Of a stretch of 64,000 nt of DNA, positions 5,120-51,608 are shown piece after piece; position 1 is the first letter of the stretch; every line of letters begins with the position of its first letter. The DNA comes from Sedimentisphaerales bacterium (GTDB lineage: Bacteria > Planctomycetota > Phycisphaerae > Sedimentisphaerales > SM23-30): assembly GCA_963666285.1 (NCBI GenBank), contig OY762711.1. One strand, written 5' to 3'. The notes beneath the pieces are model-generated. The model searched no databases. It was given only the letters and a program-made list of their open reading frames with translations, and was not told the origin of the DNA. A program made the translations under genes and the position numbers.

Positions 5120-5287
5120 TTAAGGTGACCTCTGGAAATTGCTTTTGATGCGATAGTTTAAGATTTTGGTTGCTGACAAGTAACATAAAATCGTGCATAT
5201 TGGCTATATTCACTGTTTTATGTGACGCATGTCAGCAAGTAAAAGAAAAACTTGTCGCTCAAAATGAATTTTCAGAAGTTGCCTTAA
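5120..5287. mobile_element. MITE-like palindromic element, family A copy 1
   Basis: TTAA|GGTGACCTCTGGAAATT...AATTTTCAGAAGTTGCC|TTAA. Near-identical to 12101-12268. Confidence 0.85.
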
Positions 5288-8336: not shown

Positions 8337-8373
8337 ACTATTTAATAATTTAAGCTTAATAATCCAATAGTCT

Positions 8374-8579
8374 GCTTTCGCACTTTTCAAGTTGCTGCAA
8401 ATGCCTGAAAGGAATTTCCTGCAACACTTATGTTTTAATCAAAGCGTCAGGCGACATGTCCTGAGCTGGTCTAAGGATAGTCAAACACCTTAATATTCTT
8501 CTTTTCACTGTTCGTTTTCCACTTAATTGGCCCGGTTCCAGACCTCGCAGATAAAATTAACAGTTTAAAGTACAAAAGC
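8374..8579 (-). mobile_element. TIR-bounded composite repeat, family B copy 1
   Basis: Ends GCTTTCGCACTTT / AAAGTACAAAAGC. Its reverse complement is collinear with 50126-50353. Confidence 0.75.
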
Positions 8580-8841
8580 ATACCAATACTATACTGTTAG
8601 CATATAATAAAGCCGTATTATACCTTGAAATAGTTGAATATGCAAACTCCAGATTACTATCAAATTGCCTATTTTCAGTTTTTCAAATATAAAAGGAAAA
8701 AGAACAACATTTTTCTGGAAATATAGCTATGTTTAGATATCATTAGCTTTTCATTACTGCATTGTTAGATATATTAACACCTTGTTAACATACAATTAAC
8801 CCCTCTCCTTCACACTAGCTTTATTTGACAAAGGTATTTTA

Positions 8842-12100: not shown

Positions 12101-12268
12101 TTAAGGTGCCCTCTGGAAATTGCTTTTGATGCGATAATTTAAGATTCTGGTTGCTGGCAAGGAACATAAAATCGTCCATATTGGTCTACATTCACTGTTT
12201 TATGTGACGCATGTCAGCAGGCAAAAGATAAACTTGTCGCTCAAAATGAATTTTCAAAGTCGCCTTAA
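12101..12268. mobile_element. MITE-like palindromic element, family A copy 2
   Basis: TTAA|GGTGCCCTCTGGAAATT...AATTTTCAAAGTCGCC|TTAA, about 40 bp upstream of the hydG start. Confidence 0.85.
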
Positions 12269-18590: not shown

Positions 18591-18680
18591 GCGTCAGCTC
18601 TAAAATAAGGTTGCGTTGCAACACCGCGACTCTTCACCCGCTTGCGACATGCGAAGCATACTTAGTTCCTCACTCTTCAC
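18591..18680 (-). repeat. REP-like unit, family D, with ATGCTTCGCAT hairpin
   Basis: Minus strand: GTGAAGA GTGAGGA ACTAAGT ATGCTTCGCAT...GCGGTGTTGCAACGCAACCTTATTTTAGAGCTGACGC. Confidence 0.55.
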
Positions 18681-20737: not shown

Positions 20738-22762
20738 TCAATTTGCCGATATTTCTTTATATCGAATCTCTGAACCAATAGAATCTATTAACTGCTCACC
20801 TCCCCAGCTAACTATACTTCCATCCTCTCTTAATGCAAAACCCCACCTCGAACTCCCTGATATAGCAACAAAGTTTTTTTCAGTTGGAATTCCGTTATTT
20901 TGACTCTCATCATGCGGCCCCCAGGCTACAATACTTCCATCAGACCTTAACCCCATACTGCAATACCCCCCTGCTGATATAGCAATAAAATCATTTTCTG
21001 TAGGAAACCCTAAACTCTGCCCCATCCTATTGCTGCCCCACATTACAATTGAACCATCTTGTTTTAACCCAAGACAATGACAGAAACCTAGAGAAATAGA
21101 GATAAAATCATTACCTGCTGGAACGTCCATTTGACCATCAAAATTCCTTCCCCAACCGACAATACTGCCGTCTGCCCGTAACGCAAGACTATTATCTGAA
21201 CCAGCAGCAATCTTTACATAGTCATTGCCAACTGGTTGATTATTTAATTGCCCTGATCGATTGCTGCCCCAACAAACAATACTGCCATCTCCTTTCAATG
21301 CAAGATTATGGTATCTTCCGGCTGAAATAGCGGTATAGTTATTACCGGCAGGTACTTCAAGCTGGCCAAGACTATTGTCACCCCAGGCAGCTAAACTGCC
21401 ATTTGACCTAATCGCGAGAACGTGATTCTGCCCCGCAGATACAGCTATAATTTCACTTTCAATATAATCTTCTTCAAATTGACCATCTTTGGTTTCAACC
21501 AGGTTAACAATAACCCCATCATCCCTCAACGCAATTACGTTAATGCTATTTTTAAGATAAGTCTTTTTTCCTTTTGTCATATCACTATTATCGACAGTAA
21601 AGTCATAATATGAATCCCATGGCCCTCTAGCCCCCCACCCAATAATTCGCCCATCTTCAGTTATTGCTAAACTATACCCATAAAAGTTTGAACTGACCGC
21701 TTTATATCTTCCTCTTGGACTATATCCCTCACCCCACTCATTTTTACCCCAACTTGCGATTGTTCCATCCTTCTTTAAGCCTAAACAGTAAGAATCACAT
21801 GCGGCCAGAGAAATAAAATCTTTGCCAGAAGGGACACAATCGAGAGGACCATACAATTTGCCTCCCCAGGCTGCAATGCTGCCATCTGACCTAAGGGCCA
21901 GATTATAACTGTCACCTGCAAATAATGAAGCAAATCCATTTTCTTTTGGCATACCAATCAATGGGCCAGACCATTTTTTTCCTGACCAGTCATACCCCCA
22001 TGATTCAATACTGCCATCTGTCCTGAGAGCCAAACTGTGCAGCATGCCAGCTGAGACAGAAACAAATTCATCTCCTTTTGGCACATCATCCACATTTCCA
22101 TATTTATTACTTCCCCAGGCAGCAATACTTCCGTCAGCCCGCAAAGCAACGCAATGATAATAACCAGAGGATATTGCTACATAATCATTCCCTTCAGGCA
22201 CTTCCAGTAGTCCATATTGATTACTGCCCCAGGCTACTATACTACCATCATTTTTTAACGCTATACAATGGCCTGTACCTATAGAGATCGCAATAAAATC
22301 ATTACCAGCAGGTACTTCTAACTGACCATCATCGTGATTCCCCCACGCAATAAGACTGCCATCTCCTCTTAAAGCAAGCACATTATTCAACTCTCCACAT
22401 ACAGCGACATAATCATTCCCGGCAAATTCATATTTGTTCATAAGCGGCGGGTGTGGAGAACCGACCATTCCATAAATTGTAAGTATAACCCCAATAACAC
22501 AAAGCCCTATACTGTACTTTCCCTTTTTAAGAGGCTTATCATCTTGTGATAAGTTACTAAAGTAACCTACTCCACATACAAAGCTGATAACAAACGGAAT
22601 AATAATAGCAGGCAAAAAAATACTTGAAACAATAAAGTAGACAAATGACTGATGGCCTTTGCACAAAGCTATAATTAATGCATATAACAATGCAATAATA
22701 AGCTCTATAATAGAGAATGTTAAGCATACTCCGGCTAATTTATTCGCTTTTTTATCATCCAT
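20738..22762 (-). CDS. Membrane-anchored RCC1/BLIP-II-like repeat beta-propeller protein
   Basis: Three N-terminal hydrophobic segments, then many ~39-aa repeats 'AISAGxxHxLALRxDGSIVAWGxNxxGQLxVPxGND'. Confidence 0.85.
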   Translation of the reverse strand: MDDKKANKLAGVCLTFSIIELIIALLYALIIALCKGHQSFVYFIVSSIFLPAIIIPFVISFVCGVGYFSNLSQDDKPLKKGKYSIGLCVIGVILTIYGMVGSPHPPLMNKYEFAGNDYVAVCGELNNVLALRGDGSLIAWGNHDDGQLEVPAGNDFIAISIGTGHCIALKNDGSIVAWGSNQYGLLEVPEGNDYVAISSGYYHCVALRADGSIAAWGSNKYGNVDDVPKGDEFVSVSAGMLHSLALRTDGSIESWGYDWSGKKWSGPLIGMPKENGFASLFAGDSYNLALRSDGSIAAWGGKLYGPLDCVPSGKDFISLAACDSYCLGLKKDGTIASWGKNEWGEGYSPRGRYKAVSSNFYGYSLAITEDGRIIGWGARGPWDSYYDFTVDNSDMTKGKKTYLKNSINVIALRDDGVIVNLVETKDGQFEEDYIESEIIAVSAGQNHVLAIRSNGSLAAWGDNSLGQLEVPAGNNYTAISAGRYHNLALKGDGSIVCWGSNRSGQLNNQPVGNDYVKIAAGSDNSLALRADGSIVGWGRNFDGQMDVPAGNDFISISLGFCHCLGLKQDGSIVMWGSNRMGQSLGFPTENDFIAISAGGYCSMGLRSDGSIVAWGPHDESQNNGIPTEKNFVAISGSSRWGFALREDGSIVSWGGEQLIDSIGSEIRYKEISAN

Positions 22763-24486: not shown

Positions 24487-24718
24487 AGCATAATTCCTTT
24501 TTGTTCGCAAAATTACTATAAGTGACCGACTGGACACTTATAATACTATAACAGATATTTATTCGATTTGTTATCTTAAAATTAATAAGCCCCCCGCCTG
24601 CCCGGAGCTAGTCGAAGGATAGTCGAACACCTTCCCTTTTACCTCTCCCTCCTCGCTTCTCTCTTCTAACTCTTTGCATCCTTCATTAACTTCACTTCCT
24701 TCATGGTCAAAAAAATAT

Positions 24719-24991
24719 TCTTTGCGATCTTTGCGGCCTTTGCGAGCAATAAATATATTGTCTTTATTTTGCCAGATATCTATCAGGTTTCCAATCGGCT
24801 CAACATCGCATCAGACAGGTAGCTTAGCTGTCCCCGTTGAAAATCCTGAGTATAAAAATAGTACGAGCGGTATCTTCGGCGTTAGCCGTTCAAAATAAGT
24901 TTGCGTAGGACCAGACAAATTTTACCTTTTACTCTTTTACTGTATTCGTAGCATCTTCCTAACTTTATATTTACACCTGACACTTTTTATC
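24719..24991 (+). repeat. Dispersed ~270-bp repeat, family C copy 1
   Basis: Reverse complement of 48562-48889, with long identical blocks such as AATAGTACGAGCGGTATCTTCGGCGTTAGCCGTT. Confidence 0.9.
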
Positions 24992-48561: not shown

Positions 48562-48889
48562 AGATAAATAAAGAGTAAAGTGTAAATTTAAAGGGTAAAA
48601 AAGATGCGAATACAGGTAAAGAGTAAAAGGTAAGAGGTGAGAGGTGAGAGGTAAGAGGTAAAAGGTAAAATTTACTGTTGCTACGCAAACTTATTTTAAA
48701 CGGCTAACGCCGAAGATACCGCTCGTACTATTTTCATTCTCAGTCCCTTCGACGAAGCTCAGGAGTTTCAACGGGGACGGCTAAGCTACCTGCCTGATGC
48801 GATGTTGAGCCAGTTGGAAACTAGATAGATATCCGGCAAAATAAAGACAATATATTTATTGCTCGCAAAGGCCGCAGGGATCGCAAAGA
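48562..48889 (-). repeat. Dispersed repeat family C copy 2 (inverted), with expanded heptamer run and a 19-bp insertion
   Basis: Reverse complement of 24719-24991. (TRARAGG)n run at about 48624-48666. Confidence 0.9.
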
Positions 48890-49898: not shown

Positions 49899-50125
49899 AA
49901 CAGCAAACAGCTGTCAGCTATCAGCAGCGAGCGACCTGCAGCCAGCAGGCAGAAAAACACTGATAAACTTAAGACGGACAAGTGAGCAACCTAAGTAAGG
50001 TATCAGGTAACAAGTATTTGGTATCAGGCAAGAAAACGCCTTCGGCGATACTAATTTATTGTTAGCTGACGCAGAAGTTGTATGCAATTACAATCAATGC
50101 AATTATATAATATTTCACAGAGTAC

Positions 50126-50353
50126 GCTTTCGTACTTTTGACTGTTCAACATTATACGCAAAGGCCGAAACAGGGCCAATTAAGTGAAAAATGAATAATG
50201 AAAAGTGAAAAATTCAGGTGTCCCGATGTACGTTGACATCAGGAATAATTCACTATCGTCTCACGCTTTGTTTAAAAATAAGCGTTGCAGGAAGGCCCTT
50301 GTTGGCAATTTACCAGAGGCACTTCGTTATTGCAACTTGAAAAGTGCGAAAGT
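50126..50353 (+). mobile_element. TIR-bounded composite repeat, family B copy 2
   Basis: Ends CTTTCGTACTTTT ... AAAAGTGCGAAAG. Confidence 0.75.
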
Positions 50354-50450
50354 AAACAACAGATAATATAAATGAAAATGCTACTTAAAAAATAAAGTGT
50401 CAAATGATAGTAGTACGAATGTACGCGGATTAAATTTTCCAGAGAAATCT

Positions 50451-50987: not shown

Positions 50988-51166
50988 GAGTGCGGTTTAT
51001 GCTTCGCATCATATGCATGACGCACTTTTGACTGTTCAACATTATACGCAAAGAAAGGTATTCGACTATTGTCTCATGCTTAGTTTAAAAAAAAGTGTTT
51101 CAGGAAGGCCCTTTTAGACGATTTACCAAAGGCACTTCGTTATTGCAACTCAAAAATTGCGAAAGT
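50988..51166 (+). mobile_element. Family B copy 3 (internally shortened)
   Basis: Shares ACTTTTGACTGTTCAACATTATACGCAAAG and GGCACTTCGTTATTGCAACT with copy 2. Confidence 0.75.
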
Positions 51167-51608
51167 AAATTTAGATATACTGACAACTATTATATACGTC
51201 TTGGCGAATGTTTCATTTTTTGTGCTTGATTTTGAAATGGCATATCGGGACGGGAGATAAGCGAGCAGCGGCGAGCAGACAGGAAATAGAGGATAAAGGG
51301 AAAGGGAAATCCGGATAATAAAGAAGGCTGATATGCCAATGAAAATCTCCCAGATTAACATTTCAATTACCTAGGTTTCATATGCGAAACTGGCGGCTTC
51401 GATTTGTTATGAAAAACAGGAAATAGTTGAATTTTCTTGACCTGCCAGATTCGAATTTGATAAAATGCGGCATTAAAGCATAGTGAGGAGAAAACGTTGA
51501 GAGAATGTCAAATCAGAACTCATTTCAACTTCTCAATGAATTATTTATGTTGTGAAATAATAAGTGACAGGTTTTGTGTATATTAATTTATTTTGGAGGT
51601 ACGAATAG

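Follow-up and report, generated by a model that had tools for sequence, protein, structure and literature searches.

Sequence comparisons give good support to the conclusion that M1, a hairpin element with a core of 21 nt and a consensus of 23-24 nt, is independently mobile, and suggest that 2 other modules, M2 (29 nt) and L-long (22 nt), mostly hitch-hike in the repeats that host them. The window that we analyzed is the whole 64,000-nt stretch of DNA introduced above, G000:C1:3712001-3776000, from a genome of 6.35 Mb that has 41% G+C and is 97% complete. The initial annotation had cited 4 tiny hairpin inserts within larger repeats, and had proposed a hierarchy of micro-elements that target such repeats. 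All 4 inserts were read in the window sequence at their coordinates, and are named here M1 (8454-8477, 24597-24619 and 48745-48771), M2 (50221-50249) and L-long (50999-51020); the name M4 is used for a short, perfect hairpin that occurs at other places in the genome. Nesting of micro-elements in other repeats is borne out by our analysis, and independent mobility is upheld for M1, with its 5 unrelated hosts in this genome and its orthologous empty sites, and not for M2 or L-long.

Host types were counted by eye, and module structures were read from the sequence. Pattern searches of the genome matched M2 79 times and M1 17 times, as compared with no match to the reversed pattern in either case; both motifs are far above chance expectation. 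No part of the window matched an Rfam family at its gathering score, and 8 loci outside the window gave 2 weak Rfam matches, both far under the cut-off.

The insert at 48745..48771 (plus strand; coordinates read by hand) consists of an M1-type micro-element with an AT-rich tail, which interrupts a host hairpin in its 5' arm. The host is family C copy 2 (48598..48889, plus strand), a segment of a mosaic intergenic repeat family that we call family D; the insert measures 27 nt here and 26 nt in most family C copies. Contigs from 2 runs of one sample covered positions 48705-48864 with zero differences, so the insert is not an assembly error. Polymorphism was not seen in this interval in the sequencing runs, as judged from contigs, which drop rare variants. 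An anchor search for family C returned 15 rows, and omission of 2 as unrelated left 13 copies, of which 8 are filled, 4 are truly empty (lacking the 26 nt, and folding into an intact hairpin) and 1 is partial. The partial copy, at about window position 24850, is family C copy 1 (24719..24957, minus strand). It is without the first part of the insert and still has the last 9 nt (24837-24845), and no other copy is as near to that at 48745, with an alignment score of 92 as against 32 or less for all the rest.

These comparisons bear on the initial annotation's reading of the 2 window copies as a filled and empty pair with the 5-bp CTCAG repeat arising as a duplication. The 19-bp difference between them is real (48744-48762, relative to the minus-strand copy at about 24850). 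The filled-versus-empty reading falls, since the 24850 copy retains the tail of the insert; and because that copy keeps the tail and is most likely a deletion derivative, sister to the 48745 copy, the repeated 5 bp do not represent a duplicated target site. A 5-bp target duplication at the 48739 insert is thus ruled out by comparison of the family C copies, and for this pair the short form is most likely a deletion, the outcome that the annotation had itself named as fatal to its proposal. The simplest history, which we consider quite probable, would be an old 26-nt insertion into the hairpin arm, followed in the 24850 copy by deletion between a host 5-nt word and its chance match within the inserted sequence; the alternative would be conversion between copies.

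M1 recurs in unrelated contexts. Within the window, one further copy (24597..24619, minus strand) lies in a cassette of heptamer runs and hairpins, and another, with 2 substitutions, occupies the middle-hairpin loop of a family B repeat (8454..8477, minus strand). Of 151 genomes of the class, 26 have M1; the control gave one match. The exact 23-mer gave at least 123 matches in at least 120 loci with at least 116 distinct junctions, as compared with a chance expectation of about 0.07 matches (22 fixed bases, 596 Gb, two strands); among the matches listed these come, by record titles, from more than a dozen phyla, mostly from metagenome-assembled genomes and also from isolates. The core was matched 73 times in viral contigs, with the M1 tail in 12 of 65 distinct cases, and it occurs on 2 cyanobacterial plasmids, once within a hairpin of its own type. 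The hairpin core is also found with other tails, in a REP-like form.

In genes, M1 was read by eye as an in-frame insertion at 6 loci, giving the peptide PSTSSGQ, and so accounts for 7 inserted residues that recur in proteins unrelated to one another; in the one case tested by alignment, a cysteinyl-tRNA synthetase, 8 residues of the query lie opposite gaps at the insertion. One orthologous gene compared among 3 congeners has M1 in one and lacks it in the other 2, with a net gain of 12 nt, and the target bases replaced there resemble the 3' half of M1. In this one trio, the net size could equal an insertion followed by a deletion. At an orthologous intergenic site in 5 congeners, we observed a host REP with M1, a host REP without M1, or no REP; an orthologue search for genome G048 found no congener. 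Copy number is a poorer guide. In genome G135, 23 of the 24 M1 sites read (of 51) lie inside one host REP, and therefore high M1 copy number is no proof of activity; genome-specific "bursts" were rejected as such proof, being hitch-hiking in the host REP. It should be noted, as a general caution, that high copy numbers and apparent duplications inside repeats mostly reflect hitch-hiking and deletion and not fresh insertion. Separately, tandem and self-nested M1 arrays, whose period is 23-24 nt and whose left halves are repeated, were observed around the match at loci L096, L055, L090 and L158.

The junctions give no sign of a fixed target duplication. Among the matches listed, 110 of 116 junctions of the 21-nt core had no duplication, and no choice of boundary gave a consistent one over at least 116 junctions. 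The base after the 23-mer was C in 84 of 116 of the matches listed, and was followed by T in 52 of those 84. When empty sites were rebuilt, a hairpin spanning the junction was predicted in 45% of 112, as compared with 32% and 24% in 2 controls, although the energy difference between rebuilt sites and native flanks was not significant (p=0.12), so that any preference for hairpin targets across phyla is modest; 9 of the 112 sites lie inside a hairpin of M1's own type.

Intergenic hairpins of this genome were also surveyed for loop type. Loops closed by G..A made up 40% of 3-nt loops (19% after shuffling) and 33% of 4-nt loops (21% after shuffling), and 5-nt loops had no such enrichment. Unlike GNRA loops of RNA, these loops had no purine bias at the third base. 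Among distinct sequences the G..A type accounted for 50 of 202 3-nt loops and 59 of 222 4-nt loops, so that the enrichment, weak at this level, was driven by multi-copy families. According to the available text of PMC13037366, DNA mini-hairpins are resistant to nucleases, and their RNA counterparts are much less stable; the G..A-closed host loops match the loops of such DNA mini-hairpins.

Family B, the host of M2 and L-long, is a MITE. It has terminal inverted repeats, a target duplication, many copies and no ORF; 89 full-length copies are present in the genome, with a 5-bp flanking duplication that is exact in 41 of 89 and has at most 1 mismatch in 63 of 89, as compared with 1 and 9 for control lengths of 4 bp and 6 bp. 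The window holds 3 copies: copy 1 (8370..8583, minus strand), with an exact 5-bp flanking duplication as judged by eye, copy 2 (50122..50357, plus strand) and copy 3 (50990..51170, plus strand), which has an internal deletion. Like bacterial MITEs, the family is about 180-250 bp long, non-coding and bounded by imperfect terminal inverted repeats and a 5-bp duplication. It differs from them in that its internal modules are freely shuffled and in that an autonomous partner was not found: no insertion sequence with family B ends was seen among 11 long left-end/right-end spans listed in this genome, 4 of them examined. One span, G000:C1:5982307-5987460, holds 5154 bp of ordinary genes; its left boundary resembles the left end of family B, its right boundary is a family B right end, and identical 5-bp sequences lie just outside the two. 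It is possibly a MITE-bounded composite, a rearrangement or chance.

The shuffling can be seen in 88 family B copies (one double copy was left out), in which the left, middle and right modules are found in 17 of 20 combinations, those on the left being independent of those on the right (p=1.0). The 27 common SNPs of the scaffold are unlinked past 15 nt (mean r2 about 0.02), with all 4 gametes present in 79-85% of SNP pairs, and L-long has an r2 of at most 0.04 with every scaffold SNP. Module independence together with unlinked SNPs points to short-tract exchange among family B copies. Decay of linkage with distance was non-significant (p=0.20), and recurrent mutation would give a similar pattern. 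A tree of family B was discarded because module columns had been left in its alignment, and the linkage test was used instead.

L-long is a 22-nt insert in the loop of the left terminal hairpin of the MITE (50999..51020, plus strand). The 4 copies read in 2 congeners lack it; these have a short left end, a different middle and a short right end, from which we infer that L-long and the hairpin cassette were gained in this lineage. The initial annotation had reported its motif also at 18650-18660. The match there, at 18649..18659 (minus strand) in a heptamer-run context, shares with L-long only an 11-nt mini-hairpin core: the 11-mer and its variants occur 73 times, spread over family B, heptamer contexts (14) and a third repeat (11 copies), whereas the whole 22-nt insert was seen in family B only.

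M2 (50221..50249, plus strand), a hairpin (50221-50244) with a 5-nt tail, is lineage-specific. As a family it was not found in 40 relatives, which gave 6 single matches with one mismatch each, and a metagenome scan gave no match. The genome has 80 copies, 14 in full-length family B and the remainder in fragments of B and in family D, a non-coding mosaic of heptamer runs and small hairpins. All 80 have one left and one right junction type, with at least 5 different hairpins following them as counted by eye, and modules keep a single orientation relative to the heptamer runs. In the family B copies, M2 is followed by the left arm of the donor hairpin, a sign that the module may have been brought in by recombination. 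Neither M2 nor L-long was seen outside its single junction type, and the claim that these too insert independently is not upheld; both appear mostly to hitch-hike in host repeats. M4 behaves in this genome as M1 does. No conserved ORF was found inside family D, in that clusters of 227 nearby ORFs were derived from the repeats and no plausible protein was recognized by eye. Two side observations concern these cassettes. By hand count, 52 of 79 M2 copies are co-oriented with the replication fork (p about 0.007 if independent), a skew for which the clustering of copies and gene orientation are confounders; and a heptamer/hairpin cassette with an M4-type hairpin, at G000:C1:6079754, lies in frame in a 1262-aa ORF (6078597-6082385).

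The initial annotation had suggested that a REP-associated tyrosine (HUH) transposase, or a nuclease, encoded elsewhere spreads the modules in trans, and that RAYT/Y1_Tnp or GIY-YIG genes flanked by the motifs should be sought. None of the RAYT or GIY-YIG genes examined was flanked by M1. In 5 M1-rich genomes, all of which have Y1 genes, no M1 core was present within about 1.5 kb of any of the 30 Y1 or 12 GIY-YIG loci. The Y1 genes of the present genome are 3 identical intact genes of the IS200 type, one broken copy and one RAYT-like gene for a 233-aa protein; the last scores 62.7 against a family cut-off of 80 and lies 5.9 kb from the nearest module, and every Y1 gene is at least 3.4 kb from any module. 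Among 104 scanned ORFs neighboring M1 elsewhere (of 173 listed), 1 was GIY-YIG and none was Y1. No GxxExxY/PDDEXK_3 gene was found in the genome. Its sole small GIY-YIG gene, at G000:C1:2936019-2936294, stands alone and encodes 91 aa; hairpins flank it on either side, one of them of M4 type at a distance of 82 bp, and an IS fragment adjoins it. The four-helix-bundle family PF05635 has 10 matches in the genome, 4 of them no more than 800 bp away from a family D module or a related repeat. These genes were rejected as a candidate mover, there being association only and no mechanism; PF05635 genes near repeats are at G000:C1:8296, 5096210, 5233274 and 5863748. Thus no mover for M1 was found among the Y1, GIY-YIG and neighbor-ORF candidates examined.

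In considering how M1 spreads, we take as established its presence, the variety of its hosts, the orthologous empty sites, the lack of a consistent duplication, the variable net size, hitch-hiking and the shuffling of modules among MITE copies. The mechanism that we favor, with about even belief, is that M1 travels as short, nuclease-resistant, single-stranded hairpin DNA, which would be freed from REP-type hairpins by a nicking nuclease acting in trans. Its capture at nicks, helped by microhomology, would be imprecise, and the element would then be amplified by riding inside MITEs and REPs. M2 and L-long would on the same scheme be single old insertions of a like kind, spread by transposition of the MITE and by exchange between its copies, the shuffling of which would be short-tract recombination. 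Precise peel-and-paste in trans by a HUH transposase of the REP-associated type could also explain why M1 junctions have no target duplication. The consensus begins with T, ends with C and is mostly followed by T, which resembles the cut between C and T described for TnpA-REP in the available text of PMC8266576; on the structured strand, M1 has a 4-nt tail at the 5' side of its hairpin, in the position of REP guide tetranucleotides; and Y1 genes are at hand both here and in the M1-rich genomes. We nevertheless regard this route as unlikely, given that the M1 core is absent from the surroundings of the 30 Y1 loci examined, that the RAYT-like gene is both under its family cut-off and remote from modules, that the 3 intact genes are copies of an IS200-type element, and that net sizes vary, with target bases replaced in one orthologous case.

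Passage through RNA, in which a module is transcribed, reverse-transcribed and inserted, has reportedly been suggested for small dispersed repeats (SDRs) of Nostoc, and it would fit the exact copies with ragged ends, the tandem and self-nested arrays and the single orientation of modules relative to heptamer runs. We find it quite improbable for M1, on the indirect grounds that the 4-nt loops do not have the purine preference of GNRA loops and that the paired form of M1, as read from the sequence, calls for tandem G-A pairs, and this on one strand only. The converse proposition, that no module is mobile by itself and all are fixed parts of repeats, multiplied by MITE and REP amplification and gene conversion and shortened by deletion, holds for the 48739/24850 pair and probably for M2 and L-long. 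As an account of M1 we judge it very improbable, since it fails for copies in unique coding sequence with empty orthologues and for the at least 116 distinct junctions in many phyla. Capture of hairpin DNA at nicks can be extended to a broader proposal, which we put forward tentatively and with more doubt than confidence: M1 may be a gene-less element of 21-24 bases, unchanged across more than a dozen bacterial phyla and their viruses, that travels as a free, exonuclease-resistant DNA mini-hairpin. With no transposase of its own it would be patched into genes and into hairpins that have been nicked, writing one 7-residue peptide into conserved proteins; the same patching by oligonucleotides might explain the shuffling of MITE modules.

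By analogy, M1 works like the Nostoc SDRs in its mode. The latter are reportedly dispersed hairpins of about 21-27 nt, found inside heptamer runs, mini-transposons and their own copies, and we know of no mover for them. Compared by description only, M1 is like them in size (21-27 nt), in its unrelated contexts with filled and empty sites, and in being nested in the same 3 kinds of host; M2 and L-long, in contrast, are not dispersed over unrelated contexts. The Nostoc SDRs are said to be confined to one cyanobacterial group, whereas M1 ranges over more than a dozen phyla, and it had no match on one N. punctiforme plasmid (pNPUN01). The SDRs in question are SDR1-8, the small dispersed repeats of N. 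punctiforme reportedly described by Elhai et al. (2008, Genome Res 18:1484). Nostoc SDRs are cited in the available text of PMC3116915, PMC4390886 and PMC2884548.

REPs tagged with GTAG or CGTC offer a second comparison. As described in the available text of Di Nocera et al. (2013, PMC3733652), they are short hairpins with an unpaired tag and with intragenic copies, the CGTC type is without a dedicated transposase, and the definition of that type is a CGTC/TGTC/CCTC tag and an 8-9-bp stem that opens with A-T pairs. M1 likewise is a short hairpin with an unpaired tail, has intragenic copies and has no dedicated transposase that we could find. It differs from the GTAG type in that a GTAG tetranucleotide at the foot of the hairpin is absent (as it is in M2), and from the CGTC type, as defined in that text, in having a short interrupted stem; M1 inserts into REPs of these types as a passenger. 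Mosaic intergenic hairpin arrays, lack of target duplication and possible ends at a cut between C and T are reminiscent of the REP/BIME mosaics and TnpA-REP in the available text of PMC8266576 and PMC6006769, except that no REPtron (a Y1 gene flanked by the repeat) was found here or in the 5 M1-rich genomes. The family D cassettes, with heptamer runs beside small hairpins, resemble the intergenic heptamer direct repeats of MacGregor (2015, PMC4679880) as presented in available passages of that paper; family D also has nested hairpin inserts, which those passages do not mention. No paper with M1 strings, the PSTSSGQ peptide or such a cross-phylum element was found in the literature within reach, most subscription papers, figures and supplements being beyond it.

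Ever since the SDRs were described, the means by which elements of about 20 bases move have been in question. M1 offers a substrate that is defined, exact and shared across phyla, and for which orthologous sites with and without the element exist, which makes the question testable with oligonucleotides and strain pairs.

Three other repeats were seen in the course of this work. Family A, a further dispersed repeat with a length of about 160 bp, is present at window positions 5120-5274 and 12101-12256 and gave 55-78 BLAST matches in the genome along its length. A 1.43-kb element at G000:C1:2578614-2580045 and 6 more places, probably an active insertion sequence, has 7 near-identical copies and one at 89%. 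Finally, a 674-aa ORF at window positions 20738-22762 (minus strand) contains 11 or more internal repeats, each about 117 bp long.
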